From: Candidatus Omnitrophota bacterium
GTDB taxonomy: Bacteria > Omnitrophota > Gorgyraeia > Zapsychrales > Zapsychraceae
Reading direction: 5' to 3'
DNA length: 64,000 nucleotides
Assembly: GCA_020053475.1 (NCBI GenBank)
Contig: JAGVNC010000028.1
Location: 551-64,550 of the forward strand
Below are positions 1-45,505 of this stretch, piece by piece; the stretch's first letter is position 1; the number at the start of each line of letters is the position of its first letter. The position numbers were made by a program, and so were the translations under genes. A model generated the notes under the pieces. That model was not told the origin of the DNA, searched no databases, and saw nothing but the letters and a program-made list of their open reading frames with translations.

Positions 1-1835
1 ATATCCGCCGAGAGTTTGGCTTCATACTGAAGGACCGACTTGTATTGGTCAAGATAGGTGTCATTCCGGGACTTTAATTCCGTTTTATTTAAGACTCCCT
101 GTTTTTCAAATAGCTTAGCCACATTAGGATCATCATTAAGGGCCGCTAAGGCTTCGGGCGTGCTAACTAAATTAGGAAGGCCTCTTTTCTTGGCTTCTTT
201 GACCCATTCTTCGGTGTAGTTATCACCGTTAAAGATGACCCGTTTATGTTTTTTGATAATGTCTGAAAGCGTTTTTTGAACAGCTTTATTAAAATCTTTC
301 TTATCTTTTTTGGCTTGTTCAAGTTCGTCACAGATCTCATCGACGGCCTCAGCAACGATCGTATTTAATATAATGTTGGCACCCGCTAAACTCATCCCGG
401 ATCCGACGGCTCTAAACTCGAATTTGGATCCCGTAAAAGCGAACGGGGATGTTCTGTTACGATCCGAAGCGTGGCGAGGTAACGCCGGTAGCGAATCAAC
501 GCCGACTTCCAACGAACCGCCTTGTTTCGTGCTCTTCGCTCCGCCTTTTTCGATCTGTTGGATAATATCCATCAGCTGTTCGCCCAAATAAATGGAGATG
601 ATGGCGGGAGGCGCTTCATGCGATCCTAAACGATGATCATTGGCAGCCGAAGCGACAGAAGCTCTTAACACATGAGCATACGTGTCGACAGCTTTGATCA
701 CGGCACATAAAAAGATTAAAAATCTCTCATTTTCATGAGGATTGTCGCCGGGAGATAACCAGTTCTTGCCATCGGGACCGGTCATCGACCAGTTGCAATG
801 TTTTCCGGACCCATTAATCCCGGCAAACGGTTTTTCATGCAAGAGACAAGCGAGCCCGTGTTTTTCGGCCACTTTTTGCATCACTTCCATGCATAACATG
901 TTGTGATCAACGGCCAAGTTTTGATTTTCAAAAACCGGAGCGACTTCATACTGCGAAGGGGCGACTTCATTATGGCGCGTTGTCGTCGGAGAACCAAGCC
1001 TCCACATTTCGCGATCTAAGTCTTCCATAAACCCGATGATCCGCGTTTTAATGGCCCCAAAATAATGATCCGCCATTTGCTGATGCTTGGCTGGTTCCTT
1101 ACCGAACAATGTACGGCCGGTTTGGATCAGGTCGATTCTTTTATTGTAAAATTTACGATCAATTAAGAAATATTCTTGTTCTCCTCCCAATGTTGAATAA
1201 GCTTTGTTGGTGATTTTTAATCCCAACAACTTTGCCAACCGTTCCGCTTGGATGGCGAGAGCCTTGATGGATCGAAGGAGGGGTGTTTTCTTATCCAGCG
1301 CTTCTCCCTTCCAGCCGATGAAATACGTCGGGATACAAAGAGTGGCGCTTTTCACCCCTTCTTTAATAAACGCAGGGCTTGTGGGATCCCATCCGGTATA
1401 TCCTCGAGCTTCAAATGTCGGCCTTAATCCGCCGGAAGGAAAACTAGAGGCATCAGGTTCGCCCTGAATCAGCTCTTTGCCAGAAAAATCAAGGATACAG
1501 CTGCCTTCCCCGTCCGGCTTGACAAAAGAGTCATGTTTTTCAGCCGTAAGGCCGGTCAGCGGCTGGAACCAATGGGTAAAATGTGTTGCGCCCTTGTTCA
1601 GCGCCCAATTCTTCATCGCATCGGCAACTTCATCGGCAATGCTGGGATCCAGTTTCCCGCCATTCTTGATTGTTTCACTGATCGATTTATAGGCTTTTTC
1701 GGATAAATAATTACGCATCGTCTTCAAACTAAAAACGTTTTGACCGTAATATTCCGTTATCGAATTCGCACCTTCCATGCCCTTTTCTCCTTTGCTTGTT
1801 GTAAAATCAATTCCTTGCAATCTCGATGGATTCAT
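1..1835 (-). CDS. glnN: Glutamine synthetase type III (GlnN), N-terminal ~610 aa; 3' end of the gene lies off the window. Start ATG at 1833-1835 with RBS GGAGAAACG.
   Basis: Minus-strand translation from 1835 reads [95 protein letters not shown]..., which is typical of the GS type III N-terminus. It has no stop inside the window, so the ORF track omits it. Confidence 0.8.
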
Positions 1836-1880
1836 ACGTTTCTCCTTATCTTTTGAACCTTAACCTCCGGCGGGGGCCTG

Positions 1881-1922
1881 AAAAACAAAAATCCTCTTAA
1901 CATACACGACATGTCGAAGAGG
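1881..1922 (-). terminator. Leader intrinsic terminator (attenuator) in the glnN 5' UTR: stem CCUCUU...AAGAGG followed by AUUUUUGUUUUUC on the minus-strand RNA.
   Basis: Inverted repeat cctctt (1893-1898) / aagagg (1917-1922) with an A-tract at 1881-1891 on the plus strand, which is the U-tract on the minus RNA. It lies between the predicted promoter and the glnN ATG. Confidence 0.6.
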
Positions 1923-1934
1923 ACTTCAATGCCC
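1921..1934 (-). promoter_or_regulatory. ANTAR-type target hairpin GGGC-AUUGAA-GUCC (hexaloop with A1 and G4). Its 3' strand overlaps the downstream terminator stem by 2 nt.
   Basis: Minus RNA reads guagGGCAUUGAAGUCCucuuc. The same 14-nt module recurs at 4028-4041 and, with an AUCGAA loop, at 4127-4140. Confidence 0.6.
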
Positions 1935-1990
1935 TACATCTGATTTCGTTGAAATCTTAAAAGCGTCATCGCTTTTTAAAGAATGGTTGA

Positions 1991-2019
1991 AGTATACAAT
2001 TAGCGCCTTTTCTTGTCAA
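1991..2019 (-). promoter_or_regulatory. Sigma70-type promoter of glnN: -35 TTGACA (2014-2019), 17-nt spacer, -10 TATACT (1991-1996).
   Basis: Minus strand reads tttcTTGACAagaaaaggcgctaattgTATACTtcaacc, with a perfect -35 and a near-consensus -10. Confidence 0.6.
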
Positions 2020-2074
2020 GAAATTTTTCTGGAGACACCTAACAAATTTATGGCCATCAACCATTTGTTGATGA

Positions 2075-2117
2075 TTTTTTAGAGGACAGAGGCCGTGAAT
2101 CTCTGTCCTCTAAAAAA
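2075..2117. repeat. Perfect palindrome TTTTTTAGAGGACAGAG-N9-CTCTGTCCTCTAAAAAA (17-nt arms) between glnB and the glnN promoter. A second palindrome ATCAAC-cattt-GTTGAT sits at 2055-2071.
   Basis: Read directly from the sequence. The U-tract precedes and the A-tract follows the stem on both strands, so it is not a canonical terminator in either direction. Confidence 0.7.
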
Positions 2118-2128
2118 CTTTCTTGAAC

Positions 2129-2470
2129 TTACCCGATGGCTTCAGAACCTTCTTCGCCGGTGCGAATGCGGACACATCGCGACATGTCAAGAACGAAAAT
2201 CTTACCATCGCCGATGTTCCCCGTCCTAGCTCCACGAACAATGGCTTTGACGGTTGGCTCAACGAAGTCTTCGTTGACACCAATTTCCAAGCGAACTTTT
2301 CTCAACAGGTTTCCTGTTTCCTTGGCCCCACGGTAAAGCTCCGTGACCCCTTTTTGCTTTCCGTGCCCTAAAACAGGGCTGACGGTAATCAGGTTCACAT
2401 CCGCCTTATAAAGCTCTTTTTTAACATCCTCGAGCCTATGGGGTTGAATAATAGCGATCACTAACTTCAT
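2129..2470 (-). CDS. glnB: Nitrogen regulatory protein P-II (GlnB/GlnK family), 113 aa.
   Basis: MKLVIAIIQPHRLEDVKKEL...GVTELYRGAKETGN... The T-loop Tyr51 lies in the RGAKE context, and the gene is immediately downstream of amtB (the amtB-glnK arrangement). Confidence 0.9.
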   Translation of the reverse strand: MKLVIAIIQPHRLEDVKKELYKADVNLITVSPVLGHGKQKGVTELYRGAKETGNLLRKVRLEIGVNEDFVEPTVKAIVRGARTGNIGDGKIFVLDMSRCVRIRTGEEGSEAIG

Positions 2471-2527
2471 ATGTCCTCCTCCGATGTTTCCTAATGTTGA
2501 TTGTTGAAATCGGTGGTTTCTTAACGA

Positions 2528-3766
2528 TTAGTCTAGAACGGTATAAGCAACCTCGTGATGTTGGGTCAAGTCAAGGCCGATGGCTTCATCTTTATCAGCC
2601 ACTCGAAGGCCCATAACGACATCGACGACCTTGGCGATGATAAACGTCGCAACGAAGCAGTAAACAACCGTAATGCCGACAGCAATAAGCTGTTTAGCCA
2701 CTAGCCCAGCGTTGCCGTAAAATAACCCATCGGCTCCGGCGGGATTAATCGTTGTTGTGGCAAATAATCCGGTTGCAATGGCCCCCCAGGCTCCTCCAAT
2801 GCCATGGACGCCAAAGGCATCCAGAGAATCATCGTAGCCTAACTTAGGTTTCACCACACCTACCGCAATAAAGCAGAACACACTAACTAATAAACCAATC
2901 ACAATGGCGCCCATCACGTTGACAAAACCAGCGGCCGGAGTGATCGCAACCAATCCTGCGACAATGCCAGTAACGGTCCCGAACATCGTCGGAGAACCAT
3001 TAAACTTCCATTCCAACAGCGCCCAACTTAACCCCGCCGCAGCAGCAGCGGTATTGGTAACGACAAACGCGCTAACGGCAAGGCCATTGGCGGCCAAGGC
3101 ACTTCCGGCATTGAACCCAAACCAACCGAACCAAAGAAGCGCGGCGCCTAAGACCGTAAAGGGAAGATTGTGCAAGGGCATTGGTTTATTTTCATATCCT
3201 TTTCTTTTGCCTAAAACGATCGCCATGACCAAAGCAGCAATCCCAGCATTGATATGGACAACAGTTCCGCCGGCAAAATCCAAAGCTCCTAAATTACGGA
3301 TAAATCCGCCCACGGCCCAAACCATATGACAAATCGGGGCGTAAACAAACGTTGCCCACAAGACGATGAAGACCAAAAAGGCCGAGAACTTCATTCTTTC
3401 CGCAAAAGCCCCAATAATCAACGCAGGCGTGATGATGGCAAACATGGCCTGGAAGATCATGAAGGCCTGATGGGGAATCGTGGCTGAATAATCCGCATAA
3501 GGTTCTAAGCCGACACCGTTCAATCCCGCCCAGCTCAATCCTCCGATAAAAGAATTGCCCGGACCAAACGAAAGGCTATACCCAAAAAGCACCCACTGCA
3601 GGCTCAACACGCATAATACGGTGAAGCATTGCATCAAAACACCTAAAACATTTTTCCGTCTGACCATGCCTCCATAAAAAAAGGCCAATCCCGGCGTCAT
3701 CAACATGACCAGCGCTGTCGACGCGAGCACCCACGCTGTATCCCCGCTATTAATCACTGCTTCCAT
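2528..3766 (-). CDS. amtB: Ammonium transporter AmtB, 412 aa.
   Basis: Polytopic membrane protein with Amt-family motifs (FGFNAGSA, GAIAERM-like AFAERMKFSAF). A strong RBS AAGGAGGAGG precedes the ATG at 3764-3766. Confidence 0.9.
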   Translation of the reverse strand: MEAVINSGDTAWVLASTALVMLMTPGLAFFYGGMVRRKNVLGVLMQCFTVLCVLSLQWVLFGYSLSFGPGNSFIGGLSWAGLNGVGLEPYADYSATIPHQAFMIFQAMFAIITPALIIGAFAERMKFSAFLVFIVLWATFVYAPICHMVWAVGGFIRNLGALDFAGGTVVHINAGIAALVMAIVLGKRKGYENKPMPLHNLPFTVLGAALLWFGWFGFNAGSALAANGLAVSAFVVTNTAAAAAGLSWALLEWKFNGSPTMFGTVTGIVAGLVAITPAAGFVNVMGAIVIGLLVSVFCFIAVGVVKPKLGYDDSLDAFGVHGIGGAWGAIATGLFATTTINPAGADGLFYGNAGLVAKQLIAVGITVVYCFVATFIIAKVVDVVMGLRVADKDEAIGLDLTQHHEVAYTVLD

Positions 3767-3797
3767 TGGTTACCTCCTCCTTTTTATCCCTGTTCAT

Positions 3798-3929
3798 TTA
3801 TTGTTCGTTTTTGTTTTTCAACGATGAGACAAACCACTTAAAAACAGCATAAAAACAAACCGCATTCAACATTAAAAGAGAGAATAATAATGATGCTCCG
3901 ATTTTACCCATATGCCCGGCGATAAACAT
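3798..3929 (-). CDS. Small hydrophobic leader ORF (43 aa, one predicted TM helix) ending 31 nt upstream of amtB.
   Basis: Sequence MFIAGHMGKIGASLLFSLLMLNAVCFYAVFKWFVSSLKNKNEQ, with RBS GGAG 7 nt upstream of the ATG. It sits inside the long amtB leader. It is below the ORF-track length cutoff. Confidence 0.3.
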   Translation of the reverse strand: MFIAGHMGKIGASLLFSLLMLNAVCFYAVFKWFVSSLKNKNEQ

Positions 3930-3978
3930 GTTTGTTCTCCTATCGTTAAGTGACATTATCATCGCTTGCAGGGGGCTT

Positions 3979-4029
3979 TAAAAAAGAAAAGCCCTCTTTG
4001 AAAGCTACCCACAGCTTTACTCAAGAGGG
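3979..4029 (-). terminator. Intrinsic terminator/attenuator 1 in the amtB leader: extended stem CCCUCUU-gagu-AAAGCU...AGCUUU-ca-AAGAGGG followed by CUUUUCUUUUUU.
   Basis: Plus strand reads aaaaaagaaaagCCCTCTTtgAAAGCTacccacAGCTTTactcAAGAGGG. Confidence 0.6.
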
Positions 4030-4041
4030 ACTTCAATGCCC
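4028..4041 (-). promoter_or_regulatory. ANTAR-type hairpin GGGC-AUUGAA-GUCC overlapping terminator 1 by 2 nt.
   Basis: Plus strand ggacttcaatgccc, identical to the glnN leader copy at 1921-1934. Confidence 0.6.
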
Positions 4042-4085
4042 ATCTTCAAGGCCATTCTTTGTATCGTGATGTTATATCCCGACGA

Positions 4086-4128
4086 CAAATAAAAAATCCC
4101 AACACTTGATCCATTTCCATGCGTTGGG
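4086..4128 (-). terminator. Intrinsic terminator/attenuator 2 in the amtB leader: stem CCCAAC...GUUGGG followed by AUUUUUUAUUU.
   Basis: Plus strand aaataaaaaatCCCAACacttgatccatttccatgcGTTGGG, read directly. Confidence 0.5.
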
Positions 4129-4168
4129 ACTTCGATGTCCTTGCTTACTTGAAACCTTCTTTGGTTTC
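4127..4168 (-). promoter_or_regulatory. Canonical ANTAR dual-hairpin target. P1 is GAAACC-AAAGAA-GGUUUC (4151-4168), then a 10-nt linker, then P2 GGAC-AUCGAA-GUCC (4127-4140). P2 overlaps the 5' strand of terminator 2.
   Basis: Both hexaloops have A at position 1 and G at position 4 on the minus-strand RNA only. On the plus strand the loops would read UUCUUU and UUCGAU. Confidence 0.6.
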
Positions 4169-4198
4169 GTAAGACGGCTTTGTCTTTAGAACAGAAAG

Positions 4199-4227
4199 AG
4201 TATACTATCTAAAAAATTGGGTGTCAA
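4199..4227 (-). promoter_or_regulatory. Sigma70-type promoter of the amtB-glnB operon: -35 TTGACA (4222-4227), 17-nt spacer, -10 TATACT (4199-4204). This leaves a leader of about 420 nt.
   Basis: Minus strand reads ttttcTTGACAcccaattttttagatagTATACTctttc, the same architecture as the glnN promoter. Confidence 0.6.
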
Positions 4228-4251
4228 GAAAATTTTTAAAATATCCGTTTT

Positions 4252-5493
4252 TTATTTCTTTTGATGCTGAAGCTCATCCATCAGGATAATCGATTCGGAG
4301 ATATCTTTCATGGAACGGCAGGAATCCATGCTCTTTTTGTGAATCAATTTGTAGGCCGCTTCTTCCCCCAGATTGTTTAGCCGCATCAAAATCCCCTTGG
4401 CGCGTTCAACAATTTTACGCGTTTCTAAGGCTTCCTTCGCTTTAATGGCTTCTTCCATGAGTTTAGTGTTCTCAACGGCCACGGCCGCTTGGTTGGCGAC
4501 CATCTGCAAGATATTGATTTCGTCTTCGATAAAGGCATGGGGCGCCTTGGTATAAGTGCTAATAACCCCAATGGCCTTATTCTTCACGATCATGGGGACC
4601 GCCAACATGGATGTCAAATTTTCGCGCACCGCCAATTCACGAAATCGATATTCCTTTTCCTGGCGGACGTCATAAATCGAGATTGGTTTTCGTTCCCGAA
4701 TGACCTTGCCGCTAACACTGTCGTTGACTTTTAAATTAGGCTTCTTTTTATATTCTTCGCTTAAGCTCTGGGTGGCTTTAATGACTAATTCGTTGCCCTT
4801 TTCGTCCAACAACATAATCGAGCAAATCTTGGAATTGAGCATTTCCGCGGTCACAACGACAATCAGATTAAGAATTTCATCCAAATAATCCGGCGAGGTG
4901 ATGGATTGACTGACTTTGTTGAGACTATCAAATTGAAGGGCCTTTTTTTTCGTTTCTTCATAAAGATGGGCATGGGCGATGGTTCCGCTGATCTGCTTGG
5001 CAATCAGGGAAAGCAAGCTAATGCTGCTGGGGGTATAATCATGGGGCTTTTTGTGCTGGACGGTAACAACACCAATGGCGTTTTTTTTATACACAATCGG
5101 TACCGAAAGAAAGGCTTCGTAGCGATCTTCCGGCAGCACATCAATCTTTTTAAAACGTTTGTCACGATAAGCGCCTTTCTTGATAGCCACAAATTCATTT
5201 TCTTGGGCCACCCAACCCGTGATCCCTTCTCCCGCTTTGAGGATCACCTTGCCCAACTCTTTCTGGTGAGGGATTTTAGACGCCCGCAAAACAAGATTTT
5301 CTTTTTTCTCGTCGAAAAGATAAATAAACACCGAATCCGCCCGTGTCACTTCATTAACGACTTTGACAACTTCATTTAAAATAAAGTCCAAATTCAGCTC
5401 AGAATTGGTAATTTCCACGATCCGTCTTAACACCTTCAATTCTTCCGGCTGGCTGATGCTTAATTTTTTACTTTTTGTGTTTTCTCGGCCCAT
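4252..5493 (-). CDS. GAF-GAF-ANTAR RNA-binding response regulator (transcription antiterminator), about 413 aa. ATG at 5491-5493 with RBS AAGGGG. The ORF track begins 5 codons earlier at TTG 5508.
   Basis: The C-terminus ETRKIVERAKGILMRLNNLGEEAAYKLIHKKSMDSCRSMKDISESII matches the ANTAR consensus (ERAKGiLM, EeAY, smD). Two GAF-like domains lie upstream. Confidence 0.75.
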   Translation of the reverse strand: MGRENTKSKKLSISQPEELKVLRRIVEITNSELNLDFILNEVVKVVNEVTRADSVFIYLFDEKKENLVLRASKIPHQKELGKVILKAGEGITGWVAQENEFVAIKKGAYRDKRFKKIDVLPEDRYEAFLSVPIVYKKNAIGVVTVQHKKPHDYTPSSISLLSLIAKQISGTIAHAHLYEETKKKALQFDSLNKVSQSITSPDYLDEILNLIVVVTAEMLNSKICSIMLLDEKGNELVIKATQSLSEEYKKKPNLKVNDSVSGKVIRERKPISIYDVRQEKEYRFRELAVRENLTSMLAVPMIVKNKAIGVISTYTKAPHAFIEDEINILQMVANQAAVAVENTKLMEEAIKAKEALETRKIVERAKGILMRLNNLGEEAAYKLIHKKSMDSCRSMKDISESIILMDELQHQKK

Positions 5494-5537: not shown

Positions 5538-5738
5538 ATGAATATCCTTCTCGCCATTGTCATCGTTGCCGGATGCTTTGCCTTCATGGGCATCGGCCTG
5601 CTGTTGGCCAAAAAATCCCTGAAAAGAGGCTGTTCCGTCGATCCTGATGCCTGCGCTTGCCGCAAAGAGGGCAAGGATCCCGCCTCTTGCGATCAAGAGA
5701 CAACAGCGAATTCCCCCAAAACAAATCCCTCAATCTAA
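5538..5738 (+). CDS. nqrM: Small membrane protein with a C-terminal 4-Cys motif, NqrM-like (DUF539, Na+-NQR maturation), 66 aa. The ORF-track start at 5475 would overlap the ANTAR regulator gene and was not used.
   Basis: MNILLAIVIVAGCFAFMGIGLLLAKKSLKRGCSVDPDACACRKEGKDPASCDQ... One TM helix plus four conserved Cys, adjacent to the nqr operon. Confidence 0.5.
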   Translation: MNILLAIVIVAGCFAFMGIGLLLAKKSLKRGCSVDPDACACRKEGKDPASCDQETTANSPKTNPSI

Positions 5739-22554: not shown

Positions 22555-22745
22555 ATAAAAATCCCCGCCTGTGCCGTCGGAGCAGATAAGTGGTGAACCA
22601 GTTCACCAAGTGGGAGCCTCTTTAAGCTGTCCAAGGACAGCCTAAAAGATAAGCGATTGGCGGCTTATAAAAGCCGGCAATATGTCCCTTAACAAAAGTA
22701 TTGGTTCTTTTAATCATGCCCCTAACGTACACTGCAGGGATTTAA
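22555..22745 (-). ncRNA. ssrS: Candidate 6S-like regulatory RNA of about 190 nt. It has its own extended -10 promoter and 5'/3' ends that form an irregular closing stem of at least 20 bp. It is upstream of the ygfA (MTHFS) gene.
   Basis: Promoter TGaTATAAT (22750-22758, inside the 3' end of pheT). The predicted 5' end AAAUCCCUGC pairs with GCGGGGAUUU at the 3' end, followed by UUUUAUG. Three perfect internal hairpins lie at 22588-22603, 22626-22641 and 22657-22676. The conserved ssrS-ygfA synteny comes from established knowledge. Confidence 0.4.
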
Positions 22746-28999: not shown

Positions 29000-29074
29000 T
29001 GGACCCGACAAGACTCGAACTTGTGACCTTTTCCATGTCAAGGAAACGCTCTAACCAAACTGAGCTACGGGTCC
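29000..29074 (-). tRNA. tRNA-Val (anticodon GAC).
   Basis: The reverse complement folds as a cloverleaf: acceptor GGACCCG/CGGGUCC, anticodon loop UUGACAU, T-loop UUCGAGU. Confidence 0.85.
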
Positions 29075-29150
29075 GGATTTAAATTCGAAATCCAAATCTC
29101 GAAATTCGAAACATCTGTTTCGTGCTTCCCCGGCCCGCGGCTTTTAGCCG

Positions 29151-29213
29151 TCCCCTGAAATCGCAGAGCGCTTTCGGGGATTAAATTCCAGAAAGGCTTT
29201 GCCTTTCATGGAA
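29151..29213. repeat. Triple-hairpin repeat element, copy 2, in inverted orientation, between tRNA-Val and tRNA-Leu.
   Basis: tcccctgaaatcgcagagcgctttcggggattaaattccagaaaggctttgcctttcatgga is about 85 percent identical to the reverse complement of copy 1. Confidence 0.65.
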
Positions 29214-29260
29214 CAAAGCGGCGGGGCGGGCGGATTTCGTATTGAGAATTTTTTTACACA

Positions 29261-29343
29261 TGGGCAAGGAGGGAGTCGAACCCTCACAGCCTTACGGCCA
29301 CAGGATTTTAAGTCCTGCGTGTATGCCATTCCACCACTTGCCC
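29261..29343 (-). tRNA. tRNA-Leu (anticodon UAA), class II with a long variable arm.
   Basis: Reverse complement GGGCAAGUGGUGGAAUGGCAUACACGCAGGACUUAAAAUCCUG...GGUUCGACUCCCUCCUUGCCCA, with anticodon loop CUUAAAA. Confidence 0.85.
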
Positions 29344-29449
29344 AGTAAAATCAGCGACCAGTGGTCAGTGCACAGTGATCAGAAAAGGAATATCGCGCAT
29401 GTTCGTATCTTTCTGGCCACTGACAACTGAACACTCTCCACTAAACTTA

Positions 29450-29521
29450 AGGCGCGAATCGGAATCGAACCGATGTATAGTGGTTTTGCAGACCACTGCC
29501 TTACCACTTGGCTATCGCGCC
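29450..29521 (-). tRNA. tRNA-Cys (anticodon GCA).
   Basis: Reverse complement GGCGCGAUAGCCAAGUGGUAAGGCAGUGGUCUGCAAAACCAC...GGUUCGAUUCCGAUUCGCGCCU, with discriminator U. Confidence 0.85.
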
Positions 29522-45428: not shown

Positions 45429-45505
45429 GACCCCATCGTCTAGCCTGGTCAGGACACAAGCTTTTCAAGCTTGCAGCGCGGGTTCAAATCCCGCTGGGGT
45501 CGCCA
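45429..45505 (+). tRNA. tRNA-Glu (anticodon UUC) with encoded CCA.
   Basis: GACCCCAUCGUCUAGCCUGGUCAGGACACAAGCUUUUCAAGCUUGCAGCGCGGGUUCAAAUCCCGCUGGGGUCGCCA, with anticodon loop UUUUCAA. Confidence 0.85.

Follow-up and report, generated by a model that had tools for sequence, protein, structure and literature searches.

Candidate ANTAR-type antitermination of nitrogen-assimilation genes by a GAF-GAF-ANTAR protein in an Omnitrophota bacterium

How might a bacterium of the phylum Omnitrophota tie the expression of its ammonium transporter and glutamine synthetase to its nitrogen status? The question is raised by a 64,000-nucleotide (nt) stretch of DNA from a Candidatus Omnitrophota bacterium (GenBank assembly GCA_020053475.1, contig JAGVNC010000028.1, positions 551 to 64,550 of the forward strand), hereafter the window, in which a gene for a protein with two GAF domains and an ANTAR domain (4252-5493) stands upstream of the amtB-glnB and glnN transcription units. 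Omnitrophota are an uncultured phylum whose cells are mostly ultra-small, and our literature search found no description of gene regulation in it. All regulatory features and nitrogen genes discussed below lie on the minus strand of the window. Our analysis of the sequence makes it probable that nitrogen-assimilation genes are controlled here by one-component, ANTAR-type antitermination, with the GAF-GAF-ANTAR protein (hereafter the regulator) as the antiterminator.

The genes placed under this control encode an ammonium transporter, AmtB (2528-3766; Pfam Ammonium_transp, 2.2e-129; TIGR00836, 7e-143), a PII protein of the GlnB/GlnK type (2129-2470; Pfam P-II, 6.5e-26) and a type III glutamine synthetase (GSIII), GlnN, whose gene is cut by the edge of the window (1-1835; GSIII_N, 1.9e-77, with Gln-synt_C and Gln-synt_C-ter). 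Two promoter-like sites were the top two of a promoter scan; they share the identical sequence TTGACA-17-TATACT, which matches 11 of 12 consensus positions. One precedes amtB-glnB at 4199-4227, about 40 nt downstream of the regulator gene, and the other precedes glnN at 1991-2019. The leaders that they imply are about 425 nt and about 150 nt long, which agrees with the first-pass annotation of this DNA, where the same promoters, leaders of about 420 and 150 nt and the position of the regulator upstream of both units had been correctly described.

Both leaders contain a 14-nt motif, GGRCATYGAAGTCC (GGRCAUYGAAGUCC), which occurs exactly three times in the 64 kb, always on the minus strand and always in one of these two leaders: at 4140-4127 (module 1), 4041-4028 (module 2) and 1934-1921 (module 3). 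Every copy can form a hairpin, P2, with a stem of 4-5 bp and a hexaloop that carries A at its first and G at its fourth position (A1/G4; general pattern GGRC-ANNGNN-GUCC). The three hairpins read GGAC-AUCGAA-GUCC in module 1 (4127-4140; -4.0 kcal/mol alone), GGGC-AUUGAA-GUCC in module 2 (4028-4041) and AGGGC-AUUGAA-GUCCU in module 3 (1920-1935; -5.0 kcal/mol). Each is joined to a predicted intrinsic terminator. T1 spans 4087-4130 (stem 4130-4097, U-run 4096-4087) and appears in the minimum free energy (MFE) fold at -15.9 kcal/mol; T2 spans 3980-4031 (stem 4031-3991, U-run 3990-3980, UUUUCUUUUUU) and was found by the terminator scan, at -16.9 kcal/mol; T3 spans 1881-1924 (stem 1924-1892, U-run 1891-1881, UUUUUGUUUUU) and is present in the MFE fold and in the centroid fold, at -12 to -14 kcal/mol. 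In T1, T2 and T3 alike, the GUCC that forms the 3' arm of P2 also supplies the first four bases of the terminator 5' arm. Taken alone, the P2 hairpins are weak (-3.4 to -5.0 kcal/mol), whereas the terminators that compete with them are strong (-12 to -17 kcal/mol); termination would therefore be the default outcome, and a factor would be required to hold the hairpin.

Module 1 has the classical dual-hairpin layout and is the only dual module in the window. Two A1/G4 hairpins lie upstream of its P2: H0, AAGAC-AAAGCC-GUCUU (4186-4171), identified from the sequence and the hairpin scan, and P1, a recruitment-type hairpin, GAAACC-AAAGAA-GGUUUC (4168-4151), which is found in the MFE and centroid folds and ends 10 nt from P2. 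The glnN leader also has two hairpins upstream of module 3, neither of them with an A1/G4 hexaloop. These results bear out the first-pass annotation in its claims that A1/G4 hexaloop hairpins occur in both leaders and overlap the 5' strand of a terminator. Its assumption of dual-hairpin modules holds for module 1 and fails for modules 2 and 3, which have a single hairpin; likewise, both leaders do carry modules, only that the amtB leader holds two in tandem and not one.

The arrangement is not peculiar to this genome. Our comparison set consisted of 80 loci from species-representative Omnitrophota genomes whose regulator is 68-75% identical to that of the window, and 69 of them were informative in having at least 2.5 kb of downstream sequence. 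A nitrogen-assimilation gene lies downstream of the regulator on the same strand at 60 of the 69 informative loci (amtB at 45, GSIII at 10, nirB at 4 and PII at 1). When terminators were located first and the overlap was scored second, an overlapping A1/G4 hexaloop hairpin was found at 81 of 146 terminators in the leaders of amtB or GSIII (55%), compared to 34 of 930 terminator-like hairpins elsewhere (3.7%), an odds ratio of 33 (Fisher p = 1e-53). At least one strict module is present in 40 of 51 amtB leaders, 16 of which have two to four in tandem, and modules also precede genes for NirB-type nitrite reductase and type I glutamine synthetase in relatives. Loss of the hairpins among relatives had been named in advance as an outcome that would count against antitermination; what we observed is that the arrangement is kept in the Omnitrophota relatives. 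Near-identical regulator records also exist under the labels 'Nanoarchaeota archaeon' (L034, a 1.9-kb contig) and 'uncultured Planctomycetales' (L005, L006, L011 and many third-party annotation assemblies); these labels are probably binning or taxonomy artefacts for Omnitrophota DNA.

From 93 hairpins of the relatives, with the window excluded, we derived a covariance model, R1, and used it for a full-sensitivity search of the 64 kb. Module 3 ranked first (25.5 bits, E 5.8e-4) and module 2 second (24.8 bits, E 8.5e-4), both with E < 1e-3, while module 1 came fifth (16 bits, E 0.12), after two matches on the glnB terminator. The latter is a bidirectional terminator with an 18-bp stem and T-runs on both sides (2075-2117) that closes the amtB-glnB unit. 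Its R1 match (2072-2120) is weak: it scores 17 bits and includes an insertion of 12 nt. The terminator stem opens with GGAC and closes with GUCC, and the resemblance is probably a coincidence. Across the 80 loci, all 73 R1 matches at E <= 0.05 lie on the strand of the regulator.

The case for an ANTAR-type structure is made by the loops and their surroundings. The A1/G4 loop signature is 2-4 times commoner than six control loop patterns. Among hexaloop hairpins upstream of P2, 27 of 74 are of the A1/G4 type, with about 6% expected, and 26 of 107 modules are preceded by an A1/G4 hairpin whose stem is 5 bp or longer, compared to 2.7 expected from shuffles; the stems of these partner hairpins are quite unlike one another. 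The loop signature, the partner hairpins with divergent stems and the invariable overlap with a terminator are what our structural argument is built on. Covariation in the P2 stem beat shuffles in 486 of 500 trials; the set had been pre-selected for pairing, which makes this result uninformative, and no support is claimed from it.

Among the 107 distinct modules of the relatives, an upstream partner hairpin is present in 25, a partner at the terminator apex in 24 and neither in 62. As many as 22 of the 107 start within 25 nt of the -10 box and therefore leave no room in the transcript for an upstream partner; given these promoter-proximal modules, we dropped a strict dual-hairpin criterion. 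Of the regulated terminators, 22.8% carry an A1/G4 hexaloop as their own apex, compared to 2.1% of control terminators (p = 3e-15). In these nested modules the apex hexaloop is compatible with the terminator and antiterminator folds alike, so that it could help to hold the protein while the base of the terminator is blocked, whereas in tandem arrays it could instead take the recruiting role for the module that follows. No description of such a nested, apex-hexaloop ANTAR layout was found in the literature. With the structure of EutV bound to RNA, the minimal ANTAR site was redefined as a single hexaloop (PMC8934654), and since this is the minimal binding unit, single-hairpin modules are consistent with an ANTAR site; for NasR, binding to a single hairpin is only weak (PMC7496416). 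Natural single- and apex-hexaloop modules thus bear on the question of whether a recruitment hairpin is required or one hexaloop is enough.

The product of the regulator gene is a protein of 413 amino acids (aa) and, according to a Pfam profile search, it consists of two GAF domains followed by an ANTAR domain. GAF_2 matched in two stretches (1.2e-37), GAF and GAF_3 matched as well, and ANTAR (PF03861) reached 67.7 bits, where the cut-off is 27.3, with an E of 7.6e-19 and profile positions 3-54 of 54 aligned. From the N-terminus, GAF-A (about aa 18-177) is followed by GAF-B (about aa 186-355), a long helix and the ANTAR domain (aa 357-408). The search returned no match to Response_reg, the N-terminal 355 aa being fully taken up by the two GAF domains, and none to the NIT domain. 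The first-pass annotation had recognized the two GAF domains and the ANTAR domain, and had placed a tandem GAF sensor where other ANTAR proteins have a receiver; the profile search agrees with it on both counts.

Its ANTAR domain retains the residues that in EutV touch the hexaloop. The nearest entries in the PDB are 3ci6, 3e0y, 6wsh, 1s8n and 4akk, and the alignment with NasR (4akk) is confined to the ANTAR region, which aligns without gaps with EutV, Rv1626 and NasR. EutV residues R142, K143, K147, K149, E160, Y164 and M172, which stack on or coordinate the flipped G4 and include the methionine plug, correspond to R359, K360, R364, K366, E377, Y381 and M389 of the regulator. These hexaloop-contact residues are invariant across 23 family members, except that position 381 is either Y or H. 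The loop between helices alpha7 and alpha8 reads MDSCRS in the regulator and MNKRAR in EutV. In an AlphaFold2 (AF2) model of the monomer (mean predicted local distance difference test score, pLDDT, of 79) long helices occupy residues 155-197 and 323-373; a long helix links the two GAF domains, and the continuous helix 323-373 runs into the helical ANTAR bundle. In ANTAR antiterminators a long, coiled-coil helix before the bundle would support dimerisation; what the model shows here is a continuous helix in a monomer. Structure comparison showed the whole model to be similar to the tandem GAF modules of CyaB2 and of PDE2/5/6.

Based on these data, we propose the following mechanism. RNA polymerase would start constitutively at the two sigma-70-type promoters and, by default, would stop at the intrinsic terminators, T1 and T2 in tandem before amtB-glnB and T3 before glnN. 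Under nitrogen limitation, the GAF module would turn the ANTAR dimer to its RNA-binding state, the likeliest activating signal being low glutamine and/or high 2-oxoglutarate, with PII as an alternative or additional input. The active ANTAR domain would capture each nascent GGRC-ANNGNN-GUCC hexaloop hairpin and, with the GUCC arm held, the base of the terminator would stay incomplete, allowing read-through into amtB-glnB and glnN. The two serial attenuators before amtB-glnB would sharpen the response, and PII, itself encoded by a regulated operon, could give feedback.

Which signal would reach the regulator is suggested by the kinship of its GAF domains. GAF-A resembles the GAF domain of PtsP (EI-Ntr): it matches the Acinetobacter PtsP GAF structure 3ci6 at 2.8e-28 as a fragment (1.4e-27 for the full-length regulator), with 35% identity and a TM of 0.89, and it matches NCBIfam PRK11061 (PtsP/EI-Ntr) over profile positions 2-161 at 5e-39, a likeness at the level of the domain that is far under the cut-off for the full-length family. 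EI-Ntr's GAF domain binds glutamine (PMC4848567). GAF-B has its best family match in the N-terminal GAF domain of NifA (TIGR01817, profile positions 2-178, 5e-29). The NifA GAF domain senses 2-oxoglutarate or PII, and PII acts on NifA through this domain in Azospirillum, Herbaspirillum and Rhodospirillum. Because GAF-A is PtsP-like, hence linked to glutamine, and GAF-B is NifA-like, a nitrogen-status input to the tandem module is plausible, and phosphorylation is unlikely as the signal since the regulator has no receiver domain. The activity of the protein would thus be gated by a signal of nitrogen status that reaches it through the tandem GAF module; both the ligand and the sign of the response are what we infer from the sequence, and any particular ligand scheme is offered tentatively, being somewhat more likely wrong than right.

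One variant keeps the antitermination switch and changes what it reads. The GAF module would respond to the operon-encoded PII, and through it to the 2-oxoglutarate/ATP state, which would close a feedback loop. The similarity of GAF-B to the NifA N-terminal GAF domain speaks for this variant, as do the precedent of NifA control by PII through a GAF domain in the three genera named above and the presence of the PII gene together with amtB in predicted units under the switch, in the window and in most relatives. On the other hand, GAF-A is PtsP-like and the PtsP GAF takes glutamine directly, and several loci with GSIII or nirB under the regulator have no adjoining PII gene. Weighing these points, we regard docking of PII as a minority possibility, and direct sensing of a nitrogen metabolite by the same switch as the better guess. 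The T-loop of the window PII protein (2129-2470) has the sequence GAKETGNLL. We take the corresponding E. coli GlnB loop to be GAEY(51)MVDFL, in which case the uridylylation tyrosine appears to be absent from the window protein; such an apparent loss would fit nitrogen signalling without GlnD.

To ask how far the association of the regulator with nitrogen genes extends, we turned to more distant homologues. Full-length homologues with 41-50% identity come from annotated sources in Nitrospirota (Nitrospira, Candidatus Manganitrophaceae), Elusimicrobia, Latescibacteria, Nitrospinota, Syntrophus and others; a representative-library search returned mostly giant multi-GAF proteins and served to pick homologues of about 400 aa. 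Ten distant neighbourhoods were inspected, a small sample that was partly read by eye, and about half of them have amtB, PII, glutamine synthetase or glutamate synthase (GOGAT) genes near the regulator. At L204 the regulator is divergent from an amtB-PII fusion and GSIII, and two adjacent AAAGGC hexaloops precede a terminator. The order is amtB-PII-glnA-nadE-regulator at L205 and regulator-nadE-amtB-PII-glnD at L208, which belongs to a Nitrospira metagenome-assembled genome. At L211 the regulator is followed at some distance by amtB-PII, with two AGAC-AUUGAA-GUCU hairpins, and on an Elusimicrobia contig (L209) the regulator lies beside a glutamate-synthase cluster and is itself preceded by a nested module. 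R1 found no matches at the loci of the distant homologues, where the stems differ (AGAC/GUCU, GGAGAC/GUCUCC and others); the hairpins there were found by eye and with a generic hairpin scan.

These neighbourhoods also bear on whether the regulator is the factor that acts on the leaders. The attenuators could be real and yet be worked by another factor, either a receiver-ANTAR protein like GnfR or EutV or some other RNA-binding protein, with the regulator directed at other targets. This account gains from the fact that 64 kb of the genome are visible and no more, that ANTAR proteins have one RNA motif in common, so that crosstalk is possible, and that some distant homologues are unlinked to nitrogen genes. 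Against it, regulator and modules adjoin on the same strand at those 60 of 69 Omnitrophota loci, and the adjacency recurs in other phyla despite rearranged gene orders. The regulator gene is the sole ANTAR gene in the window. A scan of metagenomes that started from the motif (16 specified bases) gave 120 matches, about 113 of them due to chance, with neither terminator nor nitrogen genes, and about 7 informative; wherever the contig held nitrogen genes and enough flank, the regulator lay at most 4 kb upstream (5 of 5). We therefore consider the involvement of another factor quite improbable, and we infer that this protein and no other binds the leader hairpins. Least credible of all, and by our estimate almost negligible, is that the leaders work without any protein, as constitutive attenuators or insulators or as riboswitch-like metabolite sensors whose ANTAR likeness is coincidental: intrinsic terminators are frequent in AT-rich leaders and the P2 stem is without covariation support, as this account would have it, but a 14-nt hairpin is below the size of any known metabolite aptamer, Rfam 15 (which includes, for example, the glutamine riboswitch) gave no relevant match to 1700-4300 at the gathering threshold or even at E <= 5, and the excess of A1/G4 loops over control patterns, the A1/G4 loops of partner hairpins with different stems and the extreme strand and position specificity of the modules all speak against it.

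Several observations nevertheless weigh against antitermination by the regulator as we describe it. A canonical partner hairpin, on which the full affinity of EutV and NasR depends, is missing from modules 2 and 3. The sequence of the P2 stem hardly varies (G-C, G-C, G.U/A-U/G-C, C-G), so that covariation gives no independent support for its pairing. A strict module was found in only 15 of 42 GSIII leaders, and the other five of the ten distant homologues are not beside nitrogen genes. The promoters, transcription start sites and termination in the source organism are predictions, and the ligand assignment is drawn wholly from domain homology. Taken together with the positive evidence, these points leave ANTAR-type antitermination by the GAF-GAF-ANTAR protein as the reading that we consider likely.

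The same reasoning, carried further, leads to a broader proposal. The regulator could belong to a large, cross-phylum family of one-component nitrogen antiterminators, spread over Omnitrophota, Nitrospirota, Elusimicrobia, Latescibacteria, Nitrospinota and Syntrophus-like bacteria, in which a PtsP-type GAF domain (glutamine) and a NifA-type GAF domain (2-oxoglutarate or PII) gate an ANTAR domain. This family would use a minimal single-hexaloop attenuator, together with the nested apex variant, and would act as the chief regulator of nitrogen in lineages for which none has been characterised. The proposal is quite possible, if a little less probable than its opposite. Two side observations concern the neighbourhoods of such homologues. 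At L206 (1-7230) and L208 (1-7338), which represent two distant lineages, the GAF-GAF-ANTAR gene is found a few genes downstream of rpoN-hpf(-rapZ), the usual seat of PTS-Ntr genes, a linkage that is intriguing given the PtsP-like GAF-A. A gene for glutamine-dependent NAD synthetase (CN_hydrolase and NAD_synthase domains) adjoins the regulator or a glutamine synthetase gene at L060 (6129), L205 (5231-8851) and L208 (7500-9275), that is, in three unrelated lineages, and may be part of the same regulon.

Other features of the window were recorded alongside the regulatory ones. The open reading frame (ORF) list contains a small ORF of 43 aa (3798-3929, minus strand) with one hydrophobic helix and the ribosome-binding site AGGAGA, located between the attenuators and amtB. 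Many Omnitrophota have an ORF of about 30-45 aa with a good ribosome-binding site and one hydrophobic helix between the last attenuator and amtB (for example L035 13077, L052 8855, L016 6681, L031 8457, L042 8500, L003 8348, L065 8800 and L068 8500), and a C-terminal motif like AQxALAxGLFWAxKxHLV is common to those of many relatives. Homology of the window ORF (MFIAGHMGKIGASLLFSLLMLNAVCFYAVFKWFVSSLKNKNEQ) to them was rejected for want of significant similarity, position and character alone being common. The ORF may encode a leader peptide or else a small membrane protein that partners AmtB. Between an NqrF-like gene and the regulator lies a further ORF, of 66 aa (5538-5738, plus strand), that encodes a single transmembrane helix and a tail rich in Cys (KRGCSVDPDACACRKEGKDPASCD). 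Pfam gave no match to it. At least 21 of the 80 loci have a version that is 42-64% identical, in most cases divergent from the regulator; it may be akin to the Na+-NQR maturation factor NqrM, a likeness with which the adjoining nqr-like operon would agree. The window also contains a match to 6S RNA at 22558-22743 on the minus strand (46.5 bits, with an Rfam gathering score of 46.4) and tRNAs at 29000-29521 (minus strand) and 45429-45502 (plus strand).

How does the system compare with those already known? The closest characterised system is GnfK/GnfR of Geobacter sulfurreducens, which controls nifH by antitermination, with terminator-like signals also found upstream of nifEN, nifX, glnK and amtB; the GnfR RNA motif, GGC-AANGGC-GCC, overlaps the terminators (PMC2995071). 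In both cases an ANTAR protein is placed at leader terminators of nitrogen genes, and the design of a stem with an A1/G4 hexaloop is the same. GnfR differs in being a phosphorylated receiver-ANTAR protein with a cognate kinase that works beneath a sigma-54 cascade, whereas the window system has a tandem GAF module, no receiver and sigma-70-like promoters. With EutV/EutW of Enterococcus faecalis (PMC3369931, PMC8934654) the system shares the ANTAR fold together with the residues in contact with the flipped G4, an antitermination hairpin and a terminator with a common strand, and the use of several attenuators per operon. EutV, however, requires two hexaloops with a tightly constrained linker, whereas most Omnitrophota modules have one canonical hexaloop and about a fifth of them place a second one at the terminator apex. 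The signals differ as well: phosphorylation for EutV, the GAF module for the window protein.

The one-component design, in which a sensor domain gates RNA binding, has precedents in NasR (NIT-ANTAR) of Klebsiella oxytoca and in PAL (PAS-LOV-ANTAR), and NasR likewise places a nitrogen-assimilation operon under antitermination. Their sensors are NIT, for nitrate and nitrite, or LOV, and not GAF, and NasR reports the availability of a substrate and not the nitrogen status of the cell. The GAF domains of PtsP and NifA are nitrogen-status sensors in their native settings, with a phosphotransferase and a sigma-54 activator as outputs, compared to the RNA-binding antiterminator proposed here. ANTAR sites have been predicted upstream of PII, amt and glutamine synthetase genes in several bacteria (PMC3369931). 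The same work, from 2012, by Ramesh and colleagues, pointed out that characterised proteins of the PAS- or GAF-ANTAR type were lacking, and its supplement is silent on GAF and on the phyla of the homologues (PMC3369931). In the literature up to a 2025 review, we found GAF-ANTAR given as an architecture only, with no characterised member, and nothing relevant for ANTAR together with amtB or for Omnitrophota together with ANTAR.

In every characterised ANTAR case the input domain is a receiver that is phosphorylated, a pseudo-receiver working with another protein, NIT or LOV, yet GAF-ANTAR is among the commonest ANTAR architectures. Our analysis ties a specific GAF-GAF-ANTAR subfamily to an RNA motif, to a plausible class of ligand, by way of the homology of its GAF domains to the two best-known ones that sense nitrogen, and to a proposed regulon, amtB-glnB and glnN in the window and also glnA and nirB in relatives. 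It provides a testable model for nitrogen regulation in Omnitrophota, and this model may also hold for Nitrospira and further lineages of environmental importance. We conclude that the kind of system is known from GnfR, EutV and NasR, and that the present case is a new form of it, set apart by its type of sensor, by modules that mostly have a single hairpin and by the hexaloops at terminator apices.

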